Assembly: GCA_964391715.1 (NCBI GenBank)
Contig: CAYMMZ010000001.1
Location: forward strand, 1-45,398
Length of the DNA: 45,398 nucleotides
Source of the DNA: Candidatus Woesearchaeota archaeon
Lineage (GTDB): Archaea > Nanobdellota > Nanobdellia > Pacearchaeales > GW2011-AR1
Reading direction: 5' to 3'
Shown piece after piece: positions 954 through 44,808 of this stretch (the first letter of the stretch is position 1; every line of letters starts with the position of its first letter). A program made the position numbers and the translations under genes. A model generated the notes under the pieces. That model was given only the letters and a program-made list of their open reading frames with translations, was not told the DNA's origin and searched no databases.

Positions 954-1041
954 AAGATTTTCCTAAAATCCGCGAAACAAAGTTTCGCCCACCTTAGGGG
1001 TGGGAAGAAATCTTGAAAAGATTTCTGGGAGGGAAAATCTT
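954..1041. repeat. multi-hairpin structured repeat, copy 1 (ends 15 nt before the smc ATG)
   Basis: Outer stem AAGATTTTCC(954-963)/GGAAAATCTT(1032-1041) encloses three hairpins: GCGAAAC-aaa-GTTTCGC (972-988), CCCACC-ttagg-GGTGGG (988-1004) and AGAAATCTT-gaa-AAGATTTCT (1006-1026). TGGGAGGGAAA follows. The architecture matches 3928-4024. Confidence 0.6.
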
Positions 1042-1055
1042 CCCAAAACATAAAA

Positions 1056-3920
1056 ATGACATATATAAAAAGAATGGTGATGCATGGATTCAAATCCTTC
1101 GCAAGGAAGACAGAAATTCCAATGGAAAATGTGATGAATGTAATTGTCGGGCCAAATGGCTCAGGAAAATCAAATATAACCGATGCACTCTGTTTTGTCC
1201 TTGGAAGACTCTCTATCAAATCAATTAGGGCGGCAAAAGCCGCAAACCTTCTTTTCACCGGAAATAAAACCTATAAAGGTTCTCAAGAAGCATCAGTAGA
1301 ATTGGTCTTCGATAACACTGATAAATCATTCGCAGTAGATACTCCAGAGCTCTCAATCAAAAGAATAGTCAGAAAAAATGGACAATCAATATATAAGATA
1401 AACCACCAAACAAAAACAAGACAAGATCTTTTAGAAATTCTCTCACAAGCAGGAATTGACCCTAATGGATTCAATATTGTCTTACAGGGAGAAATTCAAT
1501 CTCTCGTAAAGTCTTCTGCAGAAGACAGAAGAAAAATTATTGAGGAAGTAGCAGGAATCTCCATATATGAAACTAGAAAACATAAATCTATAAGGGAATT
1601 AGAAAAAACAGAAGAAAAATTAAAGGAAGTCTCAGCCGTTCTAAAAGAAAGAAATTCTTACCTAAAAAATTTAGAAAAAGAAAGACAAGAAGCTGTTCAA
1701 TGGCAAAATCTCGAAAGCACAATCAAAAGATGCAAAGCAACACTTCTCTCCAAAGAAATGAAGGAAAAGGAAAAGGAAATTTGGGGAACAGAAAAGTCGA
1801 TTGAAAATAATGAAAAAGAAATAAAAAATCTGAAAAAGAAAATAGCGGATAAGAATCTCTCAATGGAAGAACTCCAAAACAAGATAAAAATAATAAACAA
1901 AAAAATACAAGCTTCCACTAGTAGTGAACAAGAAACTCTCCATAAAGAGCTATCTGATCTAAAAGCAAATCTCGCAGGGCTAAAAGTGAGGAAAGAGAAT
2001 TTTGAAACACGTCTAGAAAGAGGACATGAAAAACAAATAGACTATAAAGAAAAAATGGAAAATCTAGATGAAGAAATTTCTAAAATTCAAACGGCAAGCC
2101 CTGAAATAAAAAAACAACAGGAAAAGCACAAAGTCCTCCAAGAAAAATTAGATATTTTAGAAAAACATAGGAGAAGATTCTACATCTTAAAATCAGAGCT
2201 TTCAACTGCAGAAAATCAAAAGTCTGAAAAAGAAAAGTTCCTTATAGAATCTAAAAAAGAAATACAATTAATAGAACAAAATATAGAATCTCTCTTTAAT
2301 GAAATCAAATATGGAAAATCTCTAGAAAAAGTCTCTGAACTGAAAAAAGAAACCAAGAGTGAAATAAATTCCTTAGAAGAAAAAATCTCTGGGTTAAGAG
2401 AAGAAATCTTGGAAAAGGAAAAAAGAAATGCTGTTCTTGAAATGGACATAAAAAGAGAAGAAAAATTATCTAAAAATATTTCTGGTTTAGAAATTTGTCC
2501 AATATGTAAGCAAAATGTAGAAGAGGGACACAAACACAAAATTTCTTCTGGGGCAAACCAAAAAATAAATTCGGCAAAAGGAGAATTTGAAAAGAATGTT
2601 CAAACAAGAGTTGAAGATACATATAAGATAGAAAAACTAGAAAAAAGATTATCTGAATTAAAAACAAAGGAAAATGAATTAGAGATAGATGAATTAAAAA
2701 TTAAAAATTCTGTGGAGAGAAAAGAAAATATTAAAAGAATTTCTGCTTCAGAGAAAGAAGCAAAAGAAGATCTAAAAAAAATTAACGAAAAGATTCACAT
2801 CATCCGTTCAGAATTTGAAAAATTAAAAGATATTGAAACGAAATATGATGAAGCAAGAATGAACTTACAAGAATTGGGTCTAGCAGAGATGGATGTAGAT
2901 ACTGAAATTACTCTAAAAAGAAAAGAGGTCAATAGATTAGATTTGGAACTAAAATCTACAATAAGAGATATTGAAGAATCTGAGGTTGAATTAAAAAAAA
3001 TCACAACCATCATCTCTGAGCAAGAAAAACTCTTCTTAAAAAAAGAAATAGAAGAACAAAAGCTCTATGAAAAGTGTGAGAAATTCTTCAATGAAAAAAA
3101 CGGACTTCAAGATCAAGAAAAAGTTCTTGAAACAGATATAATGGGCTTCCAACATAATGTTAGAAATTTTGAAGAAAAGATAAATCATTCAAAAATCCAA
3201 AAAGCCCAATACAATGCTCAAATTGACTCTTTAAAAACAGAACTCTCAGAATTCGGGAATGTCGAGTTAATTCAAGCCCCAATAGACCAAATAAGAGATA
3301 GACTCCAAAAAGCACAATTTAGGATTTCTAAATTTGGAAGTGTTAATATGCGAGCCCTAGAAGCCTTTGAAACAGTCCAAGAACAATGTACTCAAATCCA
3401 AGAAAAAGTAGAAACTATCGAAAAAGAAAAGGAAACTATCGAAAAAATAGTTGCAGAAATTGACAAAAAGAAAAAGAAATCCTTCTTAACAACTCTCAAC
3501 GCAGTAAACCAATACTTTACAAGGAACTTCTCCCAGCTGTCTCGGAAAGGAGAAGTCTTCTTAGAATTAGAAAACAAAAAAGAACCTTTTGAGGGAGGAC
3601 TAAACATCTTAGTAAAAGTCTCCCGTGGCAGATACTTCGACATAGCAAGTCTTTCTGGTGGAGAAAAAACTATGGTAGCTCTTTCCCTAATATTTGCAAT
3701 CCAAGAATACAAACCTTATTGCTTCTACATCTTTGACGAAATCGATGCTGCTCTAGACAAACATAACTCCGAACTCCTAGCCGCCCTAATAAAAAAATAC
3801 ATGAAGACAGGTCAATACATCATAATAACTCACAACGACACTCTCATCAGCGAATCCACTAATCTTTTCGGCGTCTCCATGCAAGAGAATATTTCGAAAA
3901 TCGTATCTTTAAAAGTATAG
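1056..3920 (+). CDS. smc: SMC-family chromosome-organising ATPase, hinge-less, with a CxxC hook-like apex
   Basis: N-terminus MHGFKSF...VGPNGSGKSNITDALCFVLG (Walker A, SMC-type). C-terminus LSGGEKTMVALSLIFAIQ (signature) plus FYIFDEIDAALD (Walker B). Long K/E-rich coiled coil. ICPICKQNVEEGH at aa 480-492 of 954. No globular hinge segment is visible. Confidence 0.85.
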   Translation: MTYIKRMVMHGFKSFARKTEIPMENVMNVIVGPNGSGKSNITDALCFVLGRLSIKSIRAAKAANLLFTGNKTYKGSQEASVELVFDNTDKSFAVDTPELSIKRIVRKNGQSIYKINHQTKTRQDLLEILSQAGIDPNGFNIVLQGEIQSLVKSSAEDRRKIIEEVAGISIYETRKHKSIRELEKTEEKLKEVSAVLKERNSYLKNLEKERQEAVQWQNLESTIKRCKATLLSKEMKEKEKEIWGTEKSIENNEKEIKNLKKKIADKNLSMEELQNKIKIINKKIQASTSSEQETLHKELSDLKANLAGLKVRKENFETRLERGHEKQIDYKEKMENLDEEISKIQTASPEIKKQQEKHKVLQEKLDILEKHRRRFYILKSELSTAENQKSEKEKFLIESKKEIQLIEQNIESLFNEIKYGKSLEKVSELKKETKSEINSLEEKISGLREEILEKEKRNAVLEMDIKREEKLSKNISGLEICPICKQNVEEGHKHKISSGANQKINSAKGEFEKNVQTRVEDTYKIEKLEKRLSELKTKENELEIDELKIKNSVERKENIKRISASEKEAKEDLKKINEKIHIIRSEFEKLKDIETKYDEARMNLQELGLAEMDVDTEITLKRKEVNRLDLELKSTIRDIEESEVELKKITTIISEQEKLFLKKEIEEQKLYEKCEKFFNEKNGLQDQEKVLETDIMGFQHNVRNFEEKINHSKIQKAQYNAQIDSLKTELSEFGNVELIQAPIDQIRDRLQKAQFRISKFGSVNMRALEAFETVQEQCTQIQEKVETIEKEKETIEKIVAEIDKKKKKSFLTTLNAVNQYFTRNFSQLSRKGEVFLELENKKEPFEGGLNILVKVSRGRYFDIASLSGGEKTMVALSLIFAIQEYKPYCFYIFDEIDAALDKHNSELLAALIKKYMKTGQYIIITHNDTLISESTNLFGVSMQENISKIVSLKV

Positions 3921-3927
3921 ATTTTCG

Positions 3928-4024
3928 AAGGATGAAATTAATAAATTGGTGAACGAAGTTCACCCATCGTAAATGGTGGGAGAAATTTTGCAATAAAATT
4001 TCTTGGGAGGGAAATTTCATCCTT
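3928..4024. repeat. multi-hairpin structured repeat, copy 2 (starts 8 nt after the smc stop)
   Basis: Outer stem AAGGATGAAATT(3928-3939)/AATTTCATCCTT(4013-4024) encloses GGTGAAC-gaa-GTTCACC (3948-3964), CCAT-cgtaa-ATGG (3964-3976) and AGAAATTTT-gcaat-AAAATTTCT (3981-4003). TGGGAGGGAAA follows. Confidence 0.6.
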
Positions 4025-4061
4025 TTCTAAGATTGTGAGCTTGAAGGTTTGATCCAATCTC

Positions 4062-19922: not shown

Positions 19923-22900
19923 TTAACCTTTCTTTTTTTCCTTTGGTTTTTCGGCCAATGAACCGGTAACTCTAACCAAAAGCCCTGGAAGTCCAGTTCC
20001 AACAGGCACAGGTTGATTTAAGATTATATTCTCAATTACAGAAGCTAACTTATCTTTCTTCCCAGTCTTAGTAGCTTGAACAAAGTGTTTATCAGGAGTC
20101 TCAAAACTTGCCCTCGCTAAAATAGAACTTTTGTCAGAGATAATACCCATTCTCGTAATTCCCTTAACTGCACCAGAGCTAGTCATAGTGTCTGCAATAA
20201 GCATTGAGTGCTTAATATCTACATTAAGACCTTGAGAAACAATAACTTTCTGAATTTCATTAATAATAACTCGTCTTGCAACTTCTATTCCCAAAACATT
20301 TGAAACTTCATGAATATCATTGGTAACAGTTTTGTCTGCATCAACTCCTTTAAATGCTAATAGATCTTTCAAGTTAGACCCAGCAGTCAAAATTACATAA
20401 TCTTTACCCCTCTTAACAATCAAAACTTGTGAAATCTTTTTAATTCCTGTCAATATAACTTCTTTTAATTTTTCTTTAGTCTTATAAATCTCTTTAAAAT
20501 CTTCATTAGCCATATCTAAAATCATTCCATCACTTAACTTCTTAACTGCAAATCCTTTATCTTTCAAAACTTCCACTACTTTTTCAAGGGTGATATGTGC
20601 ACTACGAAGAGCTTTTGAATCAATACCAACCTTAATTTTCTTTGAACCAAAATCAATAGCAATCTCCGTTACAATTTCCTTTAACTTAACTTCCTTTATC
20701 TTCTCCGCAATTAACTTTGCTTTTGATTCATTATTGTGATTCTTATCTAAATAAATCTCCATAGCTGGAGTTTTTGGAAGTTTTCTAGCATCCAAAATTT
20801 CTATAATTCTCGGAAGTCCTTGGGTAACTTGCACTTCTGCAACACCTGCAGCGTGGAAAACATTCAAGACCATCTGTGTAGAAGATTCTCCAAAAGATTG
20901 AGCAGTAACAACTCCTATAGCTTCTCCAGGAGAAACTAATTGATTTTTATGAGCTTCTGAAATATCAATTCCATCAAGACCATATTTAAACTGAATAATA
21001 TTATTAGAAGCATCTCTTACAGTCTTATCATAAGCCATAACTAAATCTTGTAGAGCATTAGCCAATCTTCTATACAAATAACCAGATTTTGGAGTCCTAA
21101 GGGCTGTATCCATCAGTCCATCCCTACCAGTCATAGAACCAAAGAAAAATTCATCTGGTCTAAGCCCCTCAATAAAAGAACTATAGATAAATCCTCCAGC
21201 TCGAGGACCCAAATCTCCTTTCTTGAAAGAAGATAAAGTTCTTCCAGTGTATCCAAAATCAATTCTCCGACCATTCAATGCCTGTTGACCAACAGAACAA
21301 GCAATCTGGGTAATATTCAATAAACTCCCTCCAGCCCCACTACTAATCATTTTATTCGCCAAATTCTCCTTAGGAAACCCTTTCTTAACAACATCTCCAA
21401 TTTCTGTTCGAGTCTCATTCAAAACTTGCAACACCTTAATCTCTCGAGTCTCTTCAGCAGTCTTACCCGGTAAAAGTTCCATATTCTTATTATAATAACT
21501 CTCAATTACTTCCTGAGTTTTAATCTCTGCAGAATCAATAATCTTTTTGGTCTTTTCTTTAACTTCTACGGGAACATCTAAATCTCCAATAGACAATGTA
21601 AATCCAGTTCTTGATAAAAATGTAGTTCCCAAAGAAAATACTCGTCCAAGCAAATTCATAGTCTCACCTCTCCCAATCTCTTTATCTGCAATTCTCAAAA
21701 CTTCTCCCTTCTCACTCTTAAAACCTTTATAATCAATATTCTTATCTGAAATTTTCTTAGGAACAATCTTTGAAAAAACGTCCCCTCCAGAATTTGTCTT
21801 ATTAAACCCTGAAAAATCCACTCCAGATTCGTGCAATAATTGTGCAGAATCTTCTTTTGTAAGTTCTCCTTCATTCAACATAAAGTTTCCGCTAACTGCA
21901 TCCTTAACACAACCCATTAGATTCATATTATTCTTTGGGGAAAATAAATTTGAATTAACATCTAAAAGTACCTCTGCCTCAGCCCTCGCCTCTTCAGTCT
22001 GTGGTGCATGAATATTCATCTCATCTCCATCAAAATCTGCATTGTAAGGGTTACAAACAGCGGGGTGAACCCTAAAGGTTTTTCCAGGAAGAACTTTCAC
22101 AAAATGTGCCATTAAAGAGGCTCTATGTAATGAAGGGTGTCGATTGAAAAGCACAACATCTCCATCAACTAAATGTCTCTCAACAATATACCCTGGTTCA
22201 ATTTCTTCTACTAAATCCTCTCTCAGTTCTTCAGTAATCCTCTTCCTCTTCCCGTCAGGTCTCAAAATATAATTTGCTGCAGGATATTCTTCAGATTTAA
22301 TTAATTCCTTCATCCGATTCATATTAGTACTCGTAACCCTCTCCGCAACAGTAAGAATTTTTGCAACTCTTGAAGGAATTCCAACTTCATTCAATTTCAA
22401 ATTTGGATCTGGAGAAATAACTGTTCGAGCCGAGAAATTAACCCTCTTACCAGCCAAGTTCTTTCTAATCCTTCCCTCTTTTCCTTTAATTCTTTCAGTA
22501 ATTGTTTTTAATGGCTGACCACTCCTATGTCTCGCTGGAGGAATTTTTGCAATAGAGTTATCAAAAAATGTAGTAATATGGTATTGCAATAAATCCCATA
22601 AATCTTCAATAATCACTTCAGGTGCACCTGCATTCAAATTCTCCCAAAGTCTCTGATTAGATCGAATAATATCTGACAACTTATGTGTTAAATCATCTTC
22701 AGACCTCTCACCAGATTCTAAAGTAATTGAAGGTCTAACTGTAACTGAAGGGACTAACATAGAGGTCAAAATGCTCCACTCAGGTCTTAAAGTATTCGCA
22801 TTAATCCCAAGAATCTTCAAATCTTCATCAGTTATTTTCACAAGCCTCTCTCTAATCTCTGAAGGAAATAATCTTCTTCTACCACTTCTAAAGGTTGTTG

Positions 22901-23339
22901 GCTTCTCTAACTTAACTTTTTCCTGAATAATACTACAGTGAGGACATTTCTTTCCATCCTTAGCTTTCTTAATTCTATCAATCAAAGGTTTCTCTAAATC
23001 TTTATCTTCTTTAATCAAAACTTTTCCACAAGCCTCACAAGTAGACCTTAGAACTAAATCAATAATAGGGAGATACTTTATGTGAATCACAGGTCTTGCC
23101 AATTCAATCAATCCTGGATGGCCCAAACATTCCTTCAATCTCCCTCCACAAGTCCTACATCTAACACCTGGGTCAATTGCTCCAAGTCTCAAATCCATTA
23201 ACCCTCCATCAACAGGATACCCATCAACATCATAAAGCTCTGGAGTTACAATCTTAGCAACAGAAAGCTTCTTTATCTGCTCAGGACTAAGTAAATGAAA
23301 ACTCATTCCGCTGATTTGTTTCTTTACTGGTCTATTCAT
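19923..23339 (-). CDS. rpoA: DNA-directed RNA polymerase largest subunit, A' and A'' parts in one uninterrupted ORF
   Basis: N-terminal Zn motifs CRTCGG..C..H. Catalytic YNADFDGDEMN. Bridge-helix region GRDGLMDTALRTPKSGYLYRRL. This runs without a stop into the A''-type trigger-loop region SPGEAIGVVTAQSFGESSTQMVLNVFHAAG. 1138 aa. Confidence 0.95.
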   Translation of the reverse strand: MNRPVKKQISGMSFHLLSPEQIKKLSVAKIVTPELYDVDGYPVDGGLMDLRLGAIDPGVRCRTCGGRLKECLGHPGLIELARPVIHIKYLPIIDLVLRSTCEACGKVLIKEDKDLEKPLIDRIKKAKDGKKCPHCSIIQEKVKLEKPTTFRSGRRRLFPSEIRERLVKITDEDLKILGINANTLRPEWSILTSMLVPSVTVRPSITLESGERSEDDLTHKLSDIIRSNQRLWENLNAGAPEVIIEDLWDLLQYHITTFFDNSIAKIPPARHRSGQPLKTITERIKGKEGRIRKNLAGKRVNFSARTVISPDPNLKLNEVGIPSRVAKILTVAERVTSTNMNRMKELIKSEEYPAANYILRPDGKRKRITEELREDLVEEIEPGYIVERHLVDGDVVLFNRHPSLHRASLMAHFVKVLPGKTFRVHPAVCNPYNADFDGDEMNIHAPQTEEARAEAEVLLDVNSNLFSPKNNMNLMGCVKDAVSGNFMLNEGELTKEDSAQLLHESGVDFSGFNKTNSGGDVFSKIVPKKISDKNIDYKGFKSEKGEVLRIADKEIGRGETMNLLGRVFSLGTTFLSRTGFTLSIGDLDVPVEVKEKTKKIIDSAEIKTQEVIESYYNKNMELLPGKTAEETREIKVLQVLNETRTEIGDVVKKGFPKENLANKMISSGAGGSLLNITQIACSVGQQALNGRRIDFGYTGRTLSSFKKGDLGPRAGGFIYSSFIEGLRPDEFFFGSMTGRDGLMDTALRTPKSGYLYRRLANALQDLVMAYDKTVRDASNNIIQFKYGLDGIDISEAHKNQLVSPGEAIGVVTAQSFGESSTQMVLNVFHAAGVAEVQVTQGLPRIIEILDARKLPKTPAMEIYLDKNHNNESKAKLIAEKIKEVKLKEIVTEIAIDFGSKKIKVGIDSKALRSAHITLEKVVEVLKDKGFAVKKLSDGMILDMANEDFKEIYKTKEKLKEVILTGIKKISQVLIVKRGKDYVILTAGSNLKDLLAFKGVDADKTVTNDIHEVSNVLGIEVARRVIINEIQKVIVSQGLNVDIKHSMLIADTMTSSGAVKGITRMGIISDKSSILARASFETPDKHFVQATKTGKKDKLASVIENIILNQPVPVGTGLPGLLVRVTGSLAEKPKEKKKG

Positions 23340-37762: not shown

Positions 37763-38758
37763 CTAAATCCCTCCACTAATTGTCTTACCATTCCCTTGTC
37801 CAGCCATAATAAACGAAGCCAACAAAGCTTCTAACTGAATAAATTCGTCCGAACCTTCAACTAACCTAAACTCTGCCTCTCCAGTCTTCTCTGTCAACCG
37901 AACTTTCAAAAAATTATCAATTGGCAAATTCCAAATCTCTTTTTGAATCGCCTTAATTACATCCTGCCCAGAAATAGATTCTTTAAGCATAATATCAAGA
38001 AGCTTCTCCCGCGAATTACTAAAATCTCCAGTTAAGGCATAATCCAAAACAATTTTAATATCTGAGGGCTTTGCCTTTGAAACAATCGTGTTAACCAAAT
38101 CTGGAGTAATGTTTGGGGAAACTGAAGCAGTCGCCTGCAACAGATTAATAACTCTTCGGCAATCTCCCTCACTTGATTCATAAAGCGAATCAAAAGCATC
38201 GGCAGTGATACTAAGACCTTCCCTCTCAGAAATCAAATCAATTCTTTTTTTAATATCCTTCTTCTCCAAAAGCTGAAACCTAAAAACAACTGCTCGAGAT
38301 TGTATAGGGTCAAGAATCTTCGAAGAATAATTACAACTCATAATAAATCTGCAAGTAGAAGTATAATTCTCCATGGTCCGTCGAAGTGCCTGTTGAGCTT
38401 CCCTAGTCAAGGCATCTGCCTCATCCAAAAAGATTACCTTAAACGGAACATCTCCAATTGCCTTAGTCCTAGCAAAATCCTTAACTTTTTGTCGAACAAC
38501 ATCAATTCCCCTCTCATCACTTGCATTAAGTTCAAGGTAATTCTCTCTCCAACTCTCTTCAAAAAGTTGTTTGACAATAATTAAAGCAAGGGTAGATTTC
38601 CCAGTCCCTGCAGGTCCAGCAAAAAGCAAATGGGGGATATTCATAGAATCTGTAAGCGATCGAACCCTCTTAATTATCTCCTCTTGCCCCACCATCTCAT
38701 CAAACTTCACGGGCCGATATTTTTCAGTCCACACCTCAGAGTCAAAATCATTTGTCAT
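37763..38758 (-). CDS. rfcS: replication factor C small subunit
   Basis: WTEKYRPVKFDEMVGQEE..., FAGPAGTGKST, FLDEADALT and CNYSSKILDPIQSRAVVFRF. Confidence 0.95.
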   Translation of the reverse strand: MTNDFDSEVWTEKYRPVKFDEMVGQEEIIKRVRSLTDSMNIPHLLFAGPAGTGKSTLALIIVKQLFEESWRENYLELNASDERGIDVVRQKVKDFARTKAIGDVPFKVIFLDEADALTREAQQALRRTMENYTSTCRFIMSCNYSSKILDPIQSRAVVFRFQLLEKKDIKKRIDLISEREGLSITADAFDSLYESSEGDCRRVINLLQATASVSPNITPDLVNTIVSKAKPSDIKIVLDYALTGDFSNSREKLLDIMLKESISGQDVIKAIQKEIWNLPIDNFLKVRLTEKTGEAEFRLVEGSDEFIQLEALLASFIMAGQGNGKTISGGI

Positions 38759-38833
38759 GGAACGAAAAGAGATTCCTTGTTTATAAGGATTATTGTGATA
38801 AAATTAGCCGCAAAAAAATTCTCCCCATTAATA

Positions 38834-38841
38834 TTTATATA
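38834..38841 (+). promoter_or_regulatory. TATA box TTTATATA, 21 nt before the ATG at 38863 (leaderless-type spacing)
   Basis: Read directly. The same box and the same spacing occur before the next gene (41714-41721 to ATG 41743). Confidence 0.5.
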
Positions 38842-38862
38842 CTTAGATTCCTAGTAGAAAAT

Positions 38863-41691
38863 ATGAGAAAAGAGGACGTTTTCAAAAAATTGGGGATAAT
38901 CGCAATACTCCTTTCAACAATAGGATTATTCTTTTTGACACTCAACACTGAAGAAGGATTTTTTAAAAATTTATGGGAAAATTTTGCAGGGGAAAGTCAA
39001 GATATGGGAGAAAGTTATAGTGGGGCAGGAACTAATGAAGACACCAATAAAAACTTAGAAGAAGATAAATCCTCAAACCAAGACGATGGTTCCAATTCTG
39101 GAGGTGGAGATAACTCAAGCGGAGGCGGTTCCGGAGGAGGTGGCTCTGGAGGCGGAGGAGGAGGAGGCGGAGGAGGTGGCGGCGGAAGCCCGCCCCCTGA
39201 AATTTGTAACGATGGGATTGATAATGACTTAGACAATAAAGTAGATTGCTCCGACCCAGATTGTTCAAGTGATGATTCGTGTAACTTAGATTCTGAATGT
39301 AACGATGGAATTGACAACGACAACGATGGATGGACAGATTTAGATGACCCAGGATGTATAGATTCAAACGACAATGACGAGACAAATGCCGCAACATCAT
39401 TCGAATGTTCTGATGGAATAGATAATGAAGAATACAATAAAGATGGCCTAATTGATGGTTTCGACCCTACCTGCATATTATGGACAGACACAACCGAAAC
39501 CTCTATTTGTCAAGACGGGATAGACAATGATGGTGACCTTCTATGTGACCTTGCTACAAGCACATGTATCGATTCAAGCACTCCAGGAGATTCTGGATGT
39601 ACGGACCCTAACGATGGAAGCGAAGGAAATACTGAAATTTGTAATAATGATATAGATGATGATGGAGATGGGTTCTCAGATTGTGAAGATTTTGATTGTG
39701 ACAATCAAATAAGCAATGGAGGAAAATGCGAATACCAAACCGAACTTTCCTGCACAGACAACTTTGATAACGATGCAGATAATTTAATTGATTGCTCAGA
39801 CCAAGATTGTAATGGAAAACCTGGAAACTCAAATGGAGATTCGTGTGAATATCCACAAGAACTTAGTTGTGGAGATGGTTTCGACAACGACAGAGACTTA
39901 AAAATTGATTGTGCAGATTCAGACTGTGAGCTGTTCCCTGGATGTTCTCCCGAAAATGAATGTTCAGATGGTATAGACAATGATGGGAATGGACTAACTG
40001 ATTGTGCGGACCCTGAATGTGATGGACTACTCGGAGATAACCAAGGAAATAGATGTGAATATGGAATTGAGTTAACTTGTATAGATGCTTTTGACAACAA
40101 TGCAAATGGTTTAGTTGATTGTAATGACTTAAGTTGTAATAGTGACCCTGGTTGTCAAACAAGTGAAGATGAAATCTGTAATGATGGAATTGATAATGAT
40201 AACAATGGGTTTACAGATTGTCAAGACAATGCTTGTATAGGACAGCAAGGACCAAATGGAGGAACTTGTGAATTACCTGAAGCTAGTTGTTCAGACCTCT
40301 ATGACAATGATGGAGATGGGGCAACAGATTGCGCAGACATAAACTGTGTAAATGACCCTTCTTGTAGCTCAGAAGAAGGATTCGACATGAAGGTAATTCA
40401 TATAACTCCTACAACAGGATATGTGCAAGATATCAATGGGATAGATATTTACGGCTCTTCAGAAACTCTTGCACAATGGCCCTTAGCATGGGCAATCAAA
40501 AATGCAAATGATATAAATGGCAGAAGAATTGACCTCTACGGAACTTCGGGAAAATTGACATTTGAAGGAACTCCTGCAAATAATTTCATGATAGATTCTA
40601 TGGACTCTTCAGCAAACAATCCAATAATTATCACGGGGAAAAATGGAGCAACAATCGATGCCCTCGGAGCCTCAGACACAATCTCTGTATTATCTGAAAA
40701 TGGACCTTCTCATACTTTCAATTACATTATCTGGAAGGATTTAACAATTATTCCAGGATACAGGGCAGCAGTCCACATTGGAGCCTTAACAGATACCTTA
40801 TGGGAGGGAAACCCAGGATATAGCGGATGGGAATTTGACAATGTAGTAATGGATGGGCTCTGGAGTCACAAAGAAAATTCAGGACCAGTATCTAAATGGG
40901 CAATGCAACTATTCGCAACAAAAGACTTTGTATATAAGAACGGAATAGTTAGAAACATAGAGCAAGAGCACGCAATCTACATGCACAATCCTGCAGGACC
41001 AACCTTAGTTGACAATAATCAATTCTATCAGCTCGGAAGGACAGGGGTTCAAGTAACAGCAAGAGAAAATGAATATGGTTATACTAATCTCCCTGCAAAC
41101 CCTTGGCCAATAACTATCACCAATAATATTATGGCAGACACAGGACTACAAGAGGGAGATTTTTTTGCAGGACAAACAATAACAATTGTCGGAAGAAATA
41201 CGGGAACAATCACAGTAACAGGAAACACTGTAAGTTATTGTGAGGATTTATACACTCAAGGTTTGTGTGACGCAGTCCAACAAAGAATAGATGCAAAATT
41301 CGGTCCCGGAATGAGAGCCTATGGCTCTGGAGCAACAGTGACATGGACAACCCCAAAGGAAAATTATGGAATTAGTGGACATTTAATTTATGCAAACAAT
41401 AACATAATCTATGGTTCTAATTATAATGGCGAAGCCGGTAGAAATCCTCCAGTGAGCATATCTGCAATGACTACGGCAGAAATCTATAACAACCTAATCC
41501 AAACAGGAGCAAACAAAGATGCCTTAATCATAGGAGAAGGAGACCAAGCTCATCCAATACCTTTAAATTATTGTGCAACAAATAATATAATCAACAACGG
41601 CGGGGTTATCAAGGTTGGTGGTTTTGGAAGTGATAAAATTAGGACCCAGCCAATCCAATTTGGAAACGCAGTTTGCCCTCCTCAAGCTTAA
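38863..41691 (+). CDS. giant membrane-anchored surface protein: Gly/Ser/Asp linker, 11 Cys/Asp-rich metal-binding-type repeats, C-terminal right-handed beta-helix domain
   Basis: Start at MRKEDVF (the ORF-track start at 38752 is TTG and overlaps rfcS). Transmembrane helix LGIIAILLSTIGLFFLTL. Poly-G tract. Repeats of the type C.DGIDND.DG..DC.D..C from 39204 to 40370. The tail carries N-rich PbH1-like rungs (TITNNIMADTG, VTGNTVSY, YANNNIIYG, IYNNLIQTG, TNNIINNGG). Confidence 0.8.
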   Translation: MRKEDVFKKLGIIAILLSTIGLFFLTLNTEEGFFKNLWENFAGESQDMGESYSGAGTNEDTNKNLEEDKSSNQDDGSNSGGGDNSSGGGSGGGGSGGGGGGGGGGGGGSPPPEICNDGIDNDLDNKVDCSDPDCSSDDSCNLDSECNDGIDNDNDGWTDLDDPGCIDSNDNDETNAATSFECSDGIDNEEYNKDGLIDGFDPTCILWTDTTETSICQDGIDNDGDLLCDLATSTCIDSSTPGDSGCTDPNDGSEGNTEICNNDIDDDGDGFSDCEDFDCDNQISNGGKCEYQTELSCTDNFDNDADNLIDCSDQDCNGKPGNSNGDSCEYPQELSCGDGFDNDRDLKIDCADSDCELFPGCSPENECSDGIDNDGNGLTDCADPECDGLLGDNQGNRCEYGIELTCIDAFDNNANGLVDCNDLSCNSDPGCQTSEDEICNDGIDNDNNGFTDCQDNACIGQQGPNGGTCELPEASCSDLYDNDGDGATDCADINCVNDPSCSSEEGFDMKVIHITPTTGYVQDINGIDIYGSSETLAQWPLAWAIKNANDINGRRIDLYGTSGKLTFEGTPANNFMIDSMDSSANNPIIITGKNGATIDALGASDTISVLSENGPSHTFNYIIWKDLTIIPGYRAAVHIGALTDTLWEGNPGYSGWEFDNVVMDGLWSHKENSGPVSKWAMQLFATKDFVYKNGIVRNIEQEHAIYMHNPAGPTLVDNNQFYQLGRTGVQVTARENEYGYTNLPANPWPITITNNIMADTGLQEGDFFAGQTITIVGRNTGTITVTGNTVSYCEDLYTQGLCDAVQQRIDAKFGPGMRAYGSGATVTWTTPKENYGISGHLIYANNNIIYGSNYNGEAGRNPPVSISAMTTAEIYNNLIQTGANKDALIIGEGDQAHPIPLNYCATNNIINNGGVIKVGGFGSDKIRTQPIQFGNAVCPPQA

Positions 41692-41742: not shown

Positions 41743-44700
41743 ATGGTAAGAGAGGTTGTCTTGAGAAGAATTGTCGTCTCAATAGCACTAATTGTTTCTA
41801 TTGGATTATTTTTTCTAGGATTACAAATAGCAGATAGTCTGATAACAGACTCTGTAGGAGGAGATGATATTTCTGGAGATTCTGGAGATTCTGGAATAGA
41901 TGATGGGGGCAACAATGGAGACGATGGAGATGATAATTCAGGCTCAGGGGATGATGGCTCTGGCTCAGGAGGCGGTGGCTCAGGAGGCGGAGGCGGTGGC
42001 TCAGGAGGCGGAGGTGGCTCTGATGATGGAGGCTCCGGCAGTTCCAATGAATGTGAAGACGGCACGGACAATGATGGTGATGGATGGATTGATTTAGAAG
42101 ACCCTGGATGTGCAGATGGAAATGATGATGACGAATTAAACTCAGACAAAGGCTATACCTGTTCAAACAATATAGACGATGATGGTGATGGACTAATAGA
42201 TGGCTACGACCCAGATTGTACTTCCTGGACTGACGAAGAAGATGGAAGCAGTAGCACACCTGAATGTAGTGACGGAATAGATAATGACAATGACGGCTCA
42301 ATAGATTATGACCCTAATAATCCCTTAGGAGATTTGGGTTGTAGTGATTCTAATGACAATACCGAAAATGGGGAAATTTCAACACCCTTAACTCAATTTT
42401 CAGATTCAAGCTCATACAATTGGCCATTAGTAAGCAGAGTGAGTAATGACAAACAATTCCTCTATCGTTCAGATGGAAGAAATTTACAAATGTTAGACTT
42501 AAATTTATTAAATAGTCAAACCCCTCCTTCAATAGACCAAATAGTTCTAAAGGAAGTTAAAATTTACTCAAGCACCACAGACATATTGGAAATAGGGGAA
42601 GACCTATTCATCTGCGGAGGAGATTTGGGATTGCACACTATAGACTCAAATCTTGTATCTCCTGTAAGCAGGATGGACATTCACCAAAGAGAACTTTGGT
42701 GTACAAGCCTTGCAACTGCAAAACTAGGAACTCAAGATGTCCTCCTAGCTCTTTGGTCAGGTTTTGATGACAATGAATTAAAAGTTTATGATCCTGTAAC
42801 TAAAAACACCTTAGCTTCAATTCCCCTAAGCAAATCTACAGGAGCATTAGTCCAAGGAATAGGTTGGGATGTTGAGACTAGGGGCTCTAACGCATATGTC
42901 GCCCTTGGAACTTCTGGAGTAATCCGTGTAAATTGGAAAGACGCAGTAAATGGGAACCCAACAAATTTAATCCAAGGTCCATTAGCAGTTACAAATCCCA
43001 ACTATAATAGAAGTGTTAAAGAATTGTTGGATGTAAAAGATTTATCGATAATCGGCGGAACACTATACGCGGCTGCAAATGCCCAAGGGTTAGTTGAAAT
43101 TGACTTAGCGATATCATGGGATCCAAGAATGACTACAAAAACCTACTTCCACGAAAATTTCAAAATTAACAAATATCCTACAAAAGTAGAATCCTTAATT
43201 GACTCTTCAGGGAACACTCTTATTGCAGTAAAAACTGGAGATGAGCCAAACTGGCAAGAATGGGGACCTTACATGATGTATGGAGACATAACTTGGAAAT
43301 CTACACCTATTGGAAGAGACTTAAATATTCTAGACACTTCCGCCCATGATTATGAAGAAGGTAAAATCGGAGGAGTAGTTCAGAACAAACTAATCTTATT
43401 TGAAAAGCAATCTGGAGGAACCACCCTTCAAGAAGTAGCTTCCGGTCCCCACAATGGAAAAATTCCTGGGATAAAGACAATGGACTTCTATCAAATGGGA
43501 AATGATTTTATGGTATACAACGAGATTCCCTTTATCTATAAATTTAGTAGAGACTCTTCAAATAATCTACAAGATGCTGTTATGGTTGATGGTGATCAAT
43601 TCTTACAAGGACATGGATTCTATATCCAAGGAGGAATGAGTGTAGTAAACCCTTCTGTTTTGATTTCTGGCTCTGACGGTGCTCCTCACGCTTTCCAAAA
43701 AATAAGTGGAACAAGTCCTTCATTTTCAGAAGTTGTTGGGACATACACAGTTCCTCATTGGATGGGACTCTGGGACGGAGCAAGGTGGGTAACTTCTCTT
43801 GGAACAGAATTCGCAGTCCAAGGTGCTGGAGGGATATATTGGTATATCAGAGAAATTGATTGGAGTCCATCAGTTCCTGGAATGAAAGGATGGAAAATCC
43901 CAGTAGACTTAAATCAAGGAGCAGACCAATTTGGATATACTCCTCGTTCCTATAGTAACGCAGAATTCGACCCAGATAGTGATTTAGTCTTCATGGTAAG
44001 GTCAGAATCAAGAGAAGGAATTGTAATCACAGATAGGACTTCTATCTATAATTCTGCTCAAAACACTGCATTAGATGGAGAGTTCGTACCTCAAATCCTT
44101 GCAAAAGCAGTTCTTCATGAAGAATCTCCTTCCACAAAACCTCCAGGATACAGCAAAACAGAAACACTTTGGGCATATAATCCTAAGTTTTTCAGAAACA
44201 CTGAAGGGAACAAGATAGTCGCAGTAGCAGCATCATATTATGTAGATAGCACCTCTCCAGATTATCAAAAATCTAAAGTAGTCTTCTACGAATTACCTGA
44301 ACCATTCGACCCAAGCGTTCCATTAAAAAGTGCAGTAATGATAGGATCTTCAGGACCTTCAAGTGCAGTAGCAGTAGAAATTTTTGATTTCGAGAATTCT
44401 CAAATGGCCATCGTCGCAGGGGGCGCAGGAGAAGTATCCCTCCATAATATAACCAATCTGCAAGGAGTTTTAGATGGGACATTAGCAAGAACCCTACTAA
44501 AGCCCCTCTCTTCATGGACTGTTAGGAATCAACCACTAACAGATAGAAAACCTTTAGTAACTGATGCCTTAGTAAGAGACGAAATAATAAATGGGGTCCA
44601 AAAAACCAGAATCTATGTAGCTGCCAATAGTGAAGGAGTGTACATACTCGAAATAGATAAGGACTCTAATGGAAATCTCAACCTCATAGAAATCGGAAGG

Positions 44701-44808
44701 ATCAACACAATATTCCAGCCAGTAAGTATCTCTCTTGAAAGGGTAAGCAATCAGGACGTATTAGTGGTCTATGACCATGGTGGTGGAATAATTGCCTTCA
44801 CTCAATAA
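41743..44808 (+). CDS. giant membrane-anchored surface protein: Gly/Asp linker, 3 Cys/Asp-rich repeats, long LVIVD-like beta-propeller region
   Basis: Transmembrane helix IVVSIALIVSIGLFFLGL. GGGSGGGGGGSGGGGGS tract. CEDGTDNDGDGWIDLEDPGC, CSNNIDDDGDGLIDGYDPDC and CSDGIDNDNDGSIDYD. Recurrent strands such as AYVALGTSGVIRVN, LYAAANAQGLVEIDL, IYVAANSEGVYILEID and VLVVYDHGGGIIAF. Confidence 0.8.
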   Translation: MVREVVLRRIVVSIALIVSIGLFFLGLQIADSLITDSVGGDDISGDSGDSGIDDGGNNGDDGDDNSGSGDDGSGSGGGGSGGGGGGSGGGGGSDDGGSGSSNECEDGTDNDGDGWIDLEDPGCADGNDDDELNSDKGYTCSNNIDDDGDGLIDGYDPDCTSWTDEEDGSSSTPECSDGIDNDNDGSIDYDPNNPLGDLGCSDSNDNTENGEISTPLTQFSDSSSYNWPLVSRVSNDKQFLYRSDGRNLQMLDLNLLNSQTPPSIDQIVLKEVKIYSSTTDILEIGEDLFICGGDLGLHTIDSNLVSPVSRMDIHQRELWCTSLATAKLGTQDVLLALWSGFDDNELKVYDPVTKNTLASIPLSKSTGALVQGIGWDVETRGSNAYVALGTSGVIRVNWKDAVNGNPTNLIQGPLAVTNPNYNRSVKELLDVKDLSIIGGTLYAAANAQGLVEIDLAISWDPRMTTKTYFHENFKINKYPTKVESLIDSSGNTLIAVKTGDEPNWQEWGPYMMYGDITWKSTPIGRDLNILDTSAHDYEEGKIGGVVQNKLILFEKQSGGTTLQEVASGPHNGKIPGIKTMDFYQMGNDFMVYNEIPFIYKFSRDSSNNLQDAVMVDGDQFLQGHGFYIQGGMSVVNPSVLISGSDGAPHAFQKISGTSPSFSEVVGTYTVPHWMGLWDGARWVTSLGTEFAVQGAGGIYWYIREIDWSPSVPGMKGWKIPVDLNQGADQFGYTPRSYSNAEFDPDSDLVFMVRSESREGIVITDRTSIYNSAQNTALDGEFVPQILAKAVLHEESPSTKPPGYSKTETLWAYNPKFFRNTEGNKIVAVAASYYVDSTSPDYQKSKVVFYELPEPFDPSVPLKSAVMIGSSGPSSAVAVEIFDFENSQMAIVAGGAGEVSLHNITNLQGVLDGTLARTLLKPLSSWTVRNQPLTDRKPLVTDALVRDEIINGVQKTRIYVAANSEGVYILEIDKDSNGNLNLIEIGRINTIFQPVSISLERVSNQDVLVVYDHGGGIIAFTQ

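Follow-up and report, generated by a model that had tools for sequence, protein, structure and literature searches.

Reviews of the field treat the hinge as the feature that defines SMC proteins and the zinc hook as the feature that defines Rad50 (e.g. PMC10586767). This division has been breached by engineering. In Smc(Zh), Bacillus subtilis Smc carries the zinc hook of an archaeal Rad50 in place of its hinge, and growth is normal as long as the arms have the correct length (Burmann et al. 2017, PMC5344682). Other constructs, too, tolerate the exchange of hook and hinge (PMC6969161). Archaea also have SMC-superfamily proteins that bear a hook motif, the ASRPs (ClsN/coalescin, Sph1/2; PMC9389158). 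Leaving aside subscription-only papers, we found no description of a natural hook-type SMC in the literature on archaeal and DPANN SMC proteins. The protein described here is a natural counterpart, in the DPANN lineage of Pacearchaeota and relatives, of a chimera that has so far only been built in the laboratory.

The window, by which we mean the whole stretch of DNA analysed (45,398 nucleotides), is part of a metagenomic assembly and begins at a contig end; the smc gene lies about 1 kb from that end. The features of the locus are as follows.

957..1044, plus strand: structured repeat of about 90 nt, upstream copy, comprising three hairpins and then GGGAGGGAAA (pairwise alignment, nhmmer, RNAfold)
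1056..3920, plus strand: hook-type smc gene, stop codon included; ATG start, 954 aa (ORF list)
1056..1556, plus strand: N-terminal half of the head, aa 1-167; the Pyrococcus Smc heads in the PDB (5xei/5xns) align to aa 1-200
1149-1172, plus strand: Walker A, GPNGSGKS, aa 32-39, invariant in the family alignment; R58 and Q-loop Q144 lie in the same head half
1557..2483, plus strand: ascending coiled-coil arm, aa 168-476 (AF2 secondary structure), interrupted at aa 209-219, 346-350 and 417-422
2484..2522, plus strand: predicted zinc-hook apex, aa 477-489, with C481-P-I-C484 at nt 2496-2507 (apex profile and model)
2523..3539, plus strand: descending coiled-coil arm, aa 490-828 (AF2 model), interrupted at aa 590-592, 609-615 and 733-766
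3540..3917, plus strand: C-terminal half of the head, aa 829-954; the Smc heads in the PDB align to aa 770-953
3651-3668, plus strand: signature, LSGGEK, aa 866-871, invariant in the family alignment
3723-3746, plus strand: Walker B, FYIFDEID, aa 890-897, followed by the D-loop and H-loop H926, invariant in the family
3943..4034, plus strand: downstream copy of the same structured repeat (pairwise alignment, nhmmer, RNAfold)

The repeats can be dealt with briefly. The initial annotation had described the gene as bracketed by two structured repeats, and two copies are indeed present, with 76% mean column identity. They match no Rfam family and contain no tRNA according to ARAGORN, and none of the SMC loci of the 80 other genomes contains the repeat. 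It is probably not functionally a part of the SMC system. A scan for promoters and terminators around smc gave background level with a sigma-70 model, which is not applicable to archaea.

The ATPase heads and both coiled-coil arms of the protein (P0001, with identical copies on ENA, JGI and NCBI contigs) are SMC-type. A Pfam scan returns SMC_N and AAA families, and the head has the Walker A, Q-loop, signature, Walker B, D-loop and H-loop expected of an SMC protein. The residues that are invariant in the family are G32, N34, G35 and G37-K38-S39 of Walker A, Q144, L866-S-G-G-E870 of the signature, D894-E895 and D897 of Walker B and the start of the D-loop, and H926. R58 is conserved as well and is probably the SMC arginine finger. 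In a search of the PDB, the head matches Pyrococcus Smc at 6.6e-102 and Rad50 heads at 1.5e-10. The AF2 model has a beta/alpha head in the N-terminal half (Foldseek against 4i99, TMt 0.90), and when the full model is used as a Foldseek query SMC structures come out on top, with the first Rad50 at rank 19. The NCBIfam model SMC_prok_A (TIGR02169) gives 522 bits, which is under its own cutoff of 729; Rad50 models give 60-94 bits against cutoffs of 700-1087, and thus the head is not of the Rad50 type.

The two helices at aa 168-476 and 490-828 form a long antiparallel coiled coil in the AF2 model, as expected of an SMC arm (about 45-50 nm), and the breaks of the descending helix pair with those of the ascending one. 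Each arm has about 310 residues and would be roughly 45 nm long. Both are homologous to the arms of canonical SMC proteins: aa 3-472 align with TIGR02169 positions 1-458, which covers the N-arm, and the descending arm aligns with canonical C-arms, for example aa 496-954 with residues 645-1093 of P0243. This homology stops at about aa 460-470 and restarts at about aa 496-520. Since it covers both arms up to these points, only the apex is foreign.

What is missing from the apex is the hinge, the dimerisation domain that an SMC protein is expected to have. Pfam SMC_hinge (PF06470) has no match in the 954-aa protein. A local hinge HMM, which scores 200-345 bits on most hinge-type SMCs, matches neither the window protein nor other hook-type proteins nor any ORF of 83 loci. 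Precomputed PF06470 assignments tell the same story, being present in none of the 120 database clusters closest to the window protein and in all 120 of the best relatives of P0146, a hinge-type SMC. None of those 120 relatives of P0146 could be matched, by the length of its longest contig, to a contig known for a hook-type SMC, which hints weakly that the two types are mutually exclusive; for the window's own subfamily this comparison is uninformative.

What is found instead is a CxxC motif. Translation of nt 2478-2525 gives ISGLEICPICKQNVEE, with Cys481 and Cys484 encoded at nt 2496-2507; V487 and H492, the latter just past the turn, complete the pattern CPxC..V....H. The protein contains seven cysteines, and the two that make up this motif lie four residues off its arithmetic midpoint. 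Among 57 homologues with identities down to 36%, the only invariant positions of the coiled-coil region (about 600 aa) are C481, P482, C484 and A717. CxxC is kept in 120/120 of the closest database clusters and in all 69 full-length copies from GTDB species genomes, as CPxC in 68 of them and as CFIC in the remaining one. All homologues examined have it, even those with only about 31-36% identity.

Both sequence and predicted fold place this CxxC apex with the hooks of Rad50/SbcC. When a family profile of the apex is compared with the PDB, the best four matches are all Rad50 zinc hooks (6zff/1l8d at 7e-8, 5gox at 2.4e-4). The native sequence scores 37.4 bits in the apex-profile comparison, dropping to 18.0 when CPVC is mutated and to 13.7 +/- 4.0 when the flanks are shuffled; since either change lowers the score, the score depends on the motif as well as on the order of its flanks. 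The AlphaFold model of the apex, a monomer with a pLDDT of 92.3, has 1l8d_B as its top fold match in the PDB (TMt 0.85, rmsd 2.5 A). Detection of the Rad50 hook needed family profiles: in a Pfam scan of the single apex sequence, Rad50_zn_hook (E = 0.046; 14 bits, cutoff 24.3) and CPxCG_zf (E = 1.8e-4) are both below threshold. From the sequence and the monomer model we infer that the apex binds zinc and dimerises. Compared with the known hooks (P. furiosus 1L8D/6ZFF, human 5GOX; PF04423), CPxC is at the reversal of the coiled coil in both, and counting from the second cysteine both have a hydrophobic residue at +3 and E/D-H at +7/+8.

The initial annotation had seen in the ORF at 1056-3920 two SMC-type head halves, no segment resembling a hinge and, at the midpoint of the coiled coil, a CxxC resembling the Rad50/SbcC hook. 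The head motifs it quoted are there and are invariant in the family, the positions of the cysteines agree with the translation, and the resemblance to the Rad50 hook is now supported by profile and fold searches. Three findings had been named as speaking against a chimera of SMC heads and a Rad50 hook, namely a degenerate hinge, loss of CxxC in close homologues, and heads that cluster with Rad50. None of them was encountered.

On the last of these points the scores given above are joined by a tree. In a neighbour-joining tree of 326 head columns, built without a Rad50 or ASRP outgroup, hook-type proteins group in a single clade with a bootstrap of 94/100. The clade arises from within the hinge-type SMCs of archaea, which places its members among SMC orthologues. 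Their nearest relatives on this tree are hinge-type SMCs of Woesearchaeota/Nanoarchaeia. Because the hook clade nests within hinge-type SMCs, the hinge module appears to have been replaced once, in an SMC orthologue. The window protein has its heads, catalytic motifs, arm homology and phylogeny in common with the canonical SMC of Smc-ScpAB (Pyrococcus Smc, 5XEI/5XNS/4I99; TIGR02169), as well as a joint-like break and other paired breaks in the coiled coil. ScpA occurs in the lineage. The window protein differs from the canonical SMC in having no PF06470 hinge, which is normally the SMC-defining domain, in having a CPxC hook in its place, and in being about 210 aa shorter. Annotation pipelines call such genes plain 'chromosome segregation protein SMC', and the difference stays hidden.

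We consider it likely that the window protein is an SMC orthologue whose hinge has been exchanged for a Rad50-type zinc hook, and that it comes from a DPANN archaeon of the Pacearchaeota type. The events could have been as follows. In a single event in the lineage's ancestor, a hinge module of about 270 aa (the doughnut and adjacent coiled coil) would have given way to a Rad50-type hook of about 40-50 aa. Four cysteines from two protomers would hold one Zn2+, as in Rad50, giving a constitutive dimer at the apex. The heads would engage on ATP, and the kleisin ScpA would bridge them. Without a hinge, the resulting complex may entrap DNA or extrude loops and in this way organise the chromosome and drive its segregation.

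Alternatively, the protein could be a functional Rad50, or a replacement for one: an end-tethering or repair ATPase working with a nuclease, with heads that are SMC-like through ancestry or convergence. The apex is Rad50-like in both profile and fold, and the gene keeps company with genes of DNA metabolism. RNase HII is encoded directly upstream of the hook-type smc in 53 loci, a protein of the AP-endonuclease-2 family is among the conserved neighbours in 40 loci, and DisA is near the hook-type smc in one Pacearchaeota locus (L041, on the 279,750-bp contig JAVZZP010000001.1). Yet the heads and arms differ from those of Rad50. The SMC score of the heads exceeds their Rad50 score by about 300 bits, homology to SMC arms extends over the whole length of both arms, and the head tree sets the clade amid orthologous SMCs of the hinge type. 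No member of the Mre11 family, the partner of Rad50 that is usually encoded next to it, was seen among about 30 proteins scanned against Pfam, which comprised the large ORFs of the window, representatives of the conserved neighbours and the neighbours in L041.

The kleisin also argues against a Rad50 role. The initial annotation had stated that no kleisin gene is adjacent, and this is correct for the window: scpA is absent from its 45 kb and from the other 79 of the 80 loci examined. It does not hold for the family, since in L041 a gene identified as scpA by Pfam PF02616 (33.3 bits, cutoff 24.6) is 5.7 kb from the hook-type smc. No scpB was seen among the ORFs checked. ScpA homologues are common in metagenome-assembled genomes labelled Pacearchaeota or Nanoarchaeota; when their longest contigs were compared by length with those of hook-type smc genes, only the L041 contig matched. 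Because scpA shares a contig with a hook-type smc in one Pacearchaeota genome, the hook-type SMC probably still forms an Smc-ScpA complex. All in all, a Rad50 function seems improbable to us.

The CxxC might also be something other than a zinc hook, for instance a convergent structural cap or a redox or disulphide motif, with dimerisation through heads and arms only. Some members of the same clade would fit such a scenario. These class iii relatives (P0142, P0143, P0145 and P0148; about 780-800 aa) have no apex cysteines and are apparently intact, so that a hook-free apex seems to be tolerated in the lineage. Class iii proteins are both hinge-less and hook-less. For the window protein and its hook-bearing homologues, however, the similarity to Rad50 goes beyond two cysteines. 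The pattern CPxC..(I/V/L)...(E/D)H is conserved at flanking positions that correspond to those of Pyrococcus Rad50, the ordered flanks add about 24 bits beyond the motif, and the proline after the first cysteine is invariant, as it is in Rad50 hooks. Moreover, two cysteines of one chain cannot complete a zinc site. We give this possibility little credence, and prefer the hook that would join two protomers.

Could the protein be an ASRP, a family already known to have a zinc hook? Like the window protein, ASRPs are archaeal, belong to the SMC superfamily and bear a hook motif, and there is a match to the NCBIfam ASRP model NF045487. However, this match is weak: its 96.8 bits are far under the cutoff of 300 and the 522 bits obtained with the SMC model, and it covers only aa 643-925, that is, the C-terminal head. 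ASRPs are a separate and shorter family (model length 593) with divergent heads and with arms that are not homologous to SMC arms, whereas the window protein has 954 aa and full-length SMC arms, and the head tree, which has no ASRP outgroup, sets it inside canonical SMC. Membership in ASRP is very improbable.

Finally, a mis-assembled or truncated smc gene in a metagenome bin might be suspected from the type of contig and the nearness of its end, but this explanation is refuted by recurrence. At least 80 species genomes have a hook-type SMC, and their labels are Pacearchaeota, Woesearchaeota, Nanoarchaeota or 'archaeon' throughout. The same architecture is found in at least 120 protein clusters and on hundreds of independent contigs, the largest of 660 kb. 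The ORFs are intact and their length is conserved: 78 of the 120 closest clusters and 41 of the 69 genome copies have exactly 954 aa.

The natural protein and Smc(Zh) share the same design, SMC heads and arms with a hook in place of the hinge. Smc(Zh) is a laboratory construct, while the hook-type SMC is natural, ancient and widespread, and its length is strongly conserved. This bears on a long-running question about SMC motors, namely whether the hinge is essential as a DNA gate, as a DNA-binding site or as a partner of the heads. So far the case for its dispensability has rested on engineered chimeras alone (PMC5344682, PMC6969161). In a species-rich natural lineage, evolution has independently repeated the chimera experiment: the heads and arms of SMC are retained, as is the kleisin in at least one genome, and a hook is present. 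The nearly fixed length of 954 aa agrees with the idea of a tuned arm length, and members of the family, being small and simple, lend themselves to structural and single-molecule studies.

A bolder suggestion can be made, although we think it rather unlikely: the hook-type protein may form the sole SMC complex, free of any hinge, in an entire order of streamlined archaea, and its hook could add a Rad50-like role in DNA tethering. If this is true, hinge-specific DNA binding, the hinge gate and head-hinge contacts are dispensable for SMC function in nature, and the class iii proteins would make the SMC apex a freely exchangeable module.

The initial annotation described the product of one gene in the window as SMC heads joined by a Rad50-type zinc hook in place of a hinge. 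The gene and its central motif, from the translation, are as follows:

1056-3920, + strand: SMC-like gene, ORF with a 954-aa product
2496-2507, + strand: C481-P-I-C484 within ISGLEICPICKQNVEE

The heads of this protein are of the SMC type. In Pfam, SMC_N matches amino acids 3-945 (3e-49), together with generic AAA families, and SMC_hinge gives no match. TIGR02169, the archaeal SMC equivalog of NCBIfam, scores 522 bits, which is under its cutoff of 729, and its best stretch is at amino acids 3-472 (model positions 1-458). Scores drop to 60-94 bits with Rad50 models and to 97 bits with the model of archaea-specific SMC-related proteins (ASRP). Pyrococcus Smc heads are the top matches among PDB sequences (5xei, 6.6e-102), eukaryotic SMC2/3/1/4 follow, and Rad50 heads first appear at about 1e-10. 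Since SMC heads, a missing hinge and a mid-protein CxxC were all found, the original observation was exact. The protein resembles a canonical SMC in its heads, its arms and its place in the head tree, but not in the hinge, which is demonstrably absent; the hook is the only Rad50 trait found in it; and it fails the model of ASRP, the group that includes ClsN. Below we call proteins with SMC heads and arms, an apex CPxC and no hinge hook-type.

Does the apex really resemble a Rad50 hook? We searched an apex profile (25 diverse segments, 95 columns) against all PDB sequences. The two best matches, 6zff and 1l8d (7e-8), are different crystal forms of the P. furiosus Rad50 hook; next come the human RAD50 hook 5gox (2.4e-4) and full-length RAD50 9q9h, aligned at the hook (6.7e-3). 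All four rank above RING fingers and generic coiled coils, and a less diverse profile yields the identical top two. The family pattern CPxC(K/R)x(K/Q)(I/V)xxEH is aligned with Pyrococcus CPVCGRELTDEH. Scored against the profile, the native Pyrococcus hook segment obtains 37.4 bits, 18.0 when CPVC is mutated and 10.6 when both CPVC and EH are; with the 14-residue core kept and the flanks shuffled, the score is 13.7 +/- 4.0 bits (maximum 24.2, 30 shuffles). By these scores, the four-residue motif is not the sole source of the signal.

In the full-length AlphaFold2 model (family alignment, mean pLDDT 79), the arm tip consists of a helix (423-476), a short turn (477-489) and a second helix (490-589), and there are three pairs of coiled-coil breaks along the arm. 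Paired breaks of this kind are typical of SMC arms. The first fold matches of this model are SMC structures, namely condensin Smc4, the Pyrococcus Smc head with joint, and 4i99 (TMt 0.90); Rad50 comes only at rank 19. The isolated apex model (pLDDT 92.3) has Rad50 hooks as its three best PDB fold matches: 1l8d_B (TMt 0.85, rmsd 2.5 A), 1l8d_A and 5gox_A. Their Foldseek E-values are weak, about 0.01, as is expected for a helical hairpin. The likeness of the CPxC to a Rad50 hook is thus borne out, and on profile and model together the apex is a predicted Rad50-type hook.

The hook architecture is neither chance nor an artefact, and the motif is conserved in orthologues. The best 120 homologous clusters (clustered at 90% identity) share 64-100% identity with the query; a mid-protein CxxC is present in 120/120 and the length is exactly 954 aa in 78; one member has 1486 aa because of an intein. 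Homologues found among 1.8 billion cluster representatives separate sharply into hook-type proteins of 946-998 aa with a midpoint CPxC, none matched by a hinge HMM derived from hinge-type relatives, and hinge-type SMCs of about 1050-1200 aa, which lack a CxxC and in most cases reach 200-345 bits with that HMM. When 57 hook-type proteins are aligned (identity down to 36%), the coiled-coil region of ~600 aa has four invariant residues, C481, P482, C484 and A717, and the residues that are invariant in the heads are the known catalytic ones. A GTDB scan, with one genome per species, gave 86 confirmed relatives. Of these, 80 were kept; their assemblies bear the label Pacearchaeota, Woesearchaeota, Nanoarchaeota or 'archaeon', and the contigs that carry them reach 660 kb. 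All 69 full-length genome copies have the apex CxxC (CPxC in 68, CFIC in one), and no ORF in these loci matches the hinge HMM.

Of the genome copies, only the CFIC one (locus L022, 10001-12865) lacks the otherwise invariant proline. Some hook-type SMCs carry an insertion of ~530 aa near the N-terminus (proteins P0072, P0127 and P0129; loci L059 8375-12850, L062 3611-8083 and L077 8339-12808), which in P0072 holds LAGLIDADG and intein-splicing domains (PF14528, PF14890). Inteins are also present in hinge-type SMCs of Woesearchaeota.

As to origin, a distance-based (NJ) tree of 326 head columns from 116 proteins, without outgroups, puts all hook-type proteins but P0252 into one clade nested among hinge-type archaeal SMCs (bootstrap 94/100 in the 80-taxon tree), which agrees with the initial reading of the heads as SMC-type. 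All of the nearest hinge-type SMCs have PF06470, and the MAGs that encode them are labelled Woesearchaeota, Nanoarchaeota or Nanoarchaeia. Homology of the query to its hinge-type relatives spans both arms and is interrupted only around amino acids 460-520, which points to a clean module swap in an SMC orthologue: a hook of about 40-50 aa took the place of a hinge module that measured about 270 aa, with the arms unchanged at about 310 residues each.

P0252 (991 aa) and P0259 (998 aa, 'AAA family ATPase [archaeon]') form a second SMC-like group that lacks a hinge and has a CPxC in mid-protein. P0252 lies outside the main hook clade, beside a Micrarchaeota hinge-type SMC (P0259 is absent from the tree), and the group may be an independent hinge-to-hook replacement. 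Inside the hook-type clade, the Pacearchaeota SMC homologues P0142 (804 aa), P0143 (779), P0145 (801) and P0148 (781) have intact heads, no hinge and no apex cysteine, a third apex class. Similar hinge-less and hook-less proteins (P0202, P0236, P0246) take other tree positions.

The window belongs to the chromosomal core of a low-GC archaeon and has genes for RNA polymerase subunits, EF-2, EF-1alpha, ribonucleotide reductase and a DnaG-like primase; next to the hook-type smc, on the opposite strand, lie genes for an MFS transporter and for small membrane proteins. RNase HII is the best conserved neighbour in the 80 genomes; its gene immediately precedes smc, in the same orientation, in 53/80 loci, for example:

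L065, 9222-9881, strand of smc: RNase HII
L041, 1612-2265, strand of smc: RNase HII

Given this position, RNase HII and the hook-type smc may form an operon; the window lacks the arrangement because its contig ends 1 kb upstream. The remaining conserved neighbours are housekeeping genes, and no Mre11 family was found among neighbours scanned against Pfam. The initial remark that no kleisin gene is adjacent holds for the window, where no scpA occurs within 45 kb, but not for the lineage. One Pacearchaeota genome, that of L041, whose SMC shares 51% identity with the query, encodes a 259-aa ScpA on the smc contig, 5.7 kb downstream of the gene (PF02616, 33.3 bits, cutoff 24.6, full model length covered). 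Homologues of this ScpA are plentiful in MAGs labelled Pacearchaeota or Nanoarchaeota. For the best 120 relatives of the hinge-type SMC P0146, no longest contig had the length of a hook-bearing contig, a weak hint that the two types are mutually exclusive.

The two structured repeats said to bracket the SMC gene are indeed there, and three large ORFs elsewhere in the window deserve mention:

957-1044, + strand: structured element of about 90 nt, upstream copy
3943-4034, + strand: the same element, downstream copy
19923-23339, - strand: 1138-aa ORF with Rpb1 domains 1-5
38752-41691, + strand: 979-aa ORF
41743-44808, + strand: 1021-aa ORF

Each copy of the element has three consecutive hairpins and then GGGAGGGAAA. 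Mean column identity is 76%, some stem differences preserve pairing, and the upstream copy is able to close into a cloverleaf-like fold (-36 kcal/mol). The element has no Rfam or tRNA match; the 45-kb window has no further copies, and the smc loci of the other 80 genomes have none. RNA polymerase A' and A'' are encoded by two genes in most archaea; with Rpb1 domains 1-5 in one ORF, they appear to be fused in a single gene here. The 979- and 1021-aa ORFs, adjacent to each other, have no Pfam match at E <= 0.001 and lie at a switch of GC skew, at about 38 kb, from strongly negative to positive values.

How might a hook-type SMC work? It combines an intact SMC ATPase and SMC arms with a conserved Rad50-like CPxC hairpin. 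Two chains would coordinate one Zn2+ through four cysteines, forming a constitutive apex dimer; the heads would engage in an ATP-dependent manner and ScpA would bridge them. The resulting Smc-ScpA ring or rod would organise the chromosome without a hinge. Such a mechanism is credible because B. subtilis grows normally when the P. furiosus Rad50 hook takes the place of its Smc hinge, the correct arm length still being needed (Burmann et al. 2017, PMC5344682), and it is further supported by reported hook/hinge interchange (PMC6969161). The length of the family, near-fixed at 954 aa despite >50% sequence divergence, fits an arm-length constraint.

Reviews assign hinges to SMC proteins and hooks to Rad50 proteins (PMC10586767), and surveys of archaeal SMC diversity leave hooks in canonical SMC unmentioned (PMC8665677; PMC9389158). 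We found no description of a natural hook-type SMC in open-access full-text papers or bioRxiv, and the database name of these proteins is plain 'chromosome segregation protein SMC'. The natural hook-type SMC is real and widespread, it has apparently gone undescribed so far, and the laboratory precedent predicts that it should work.
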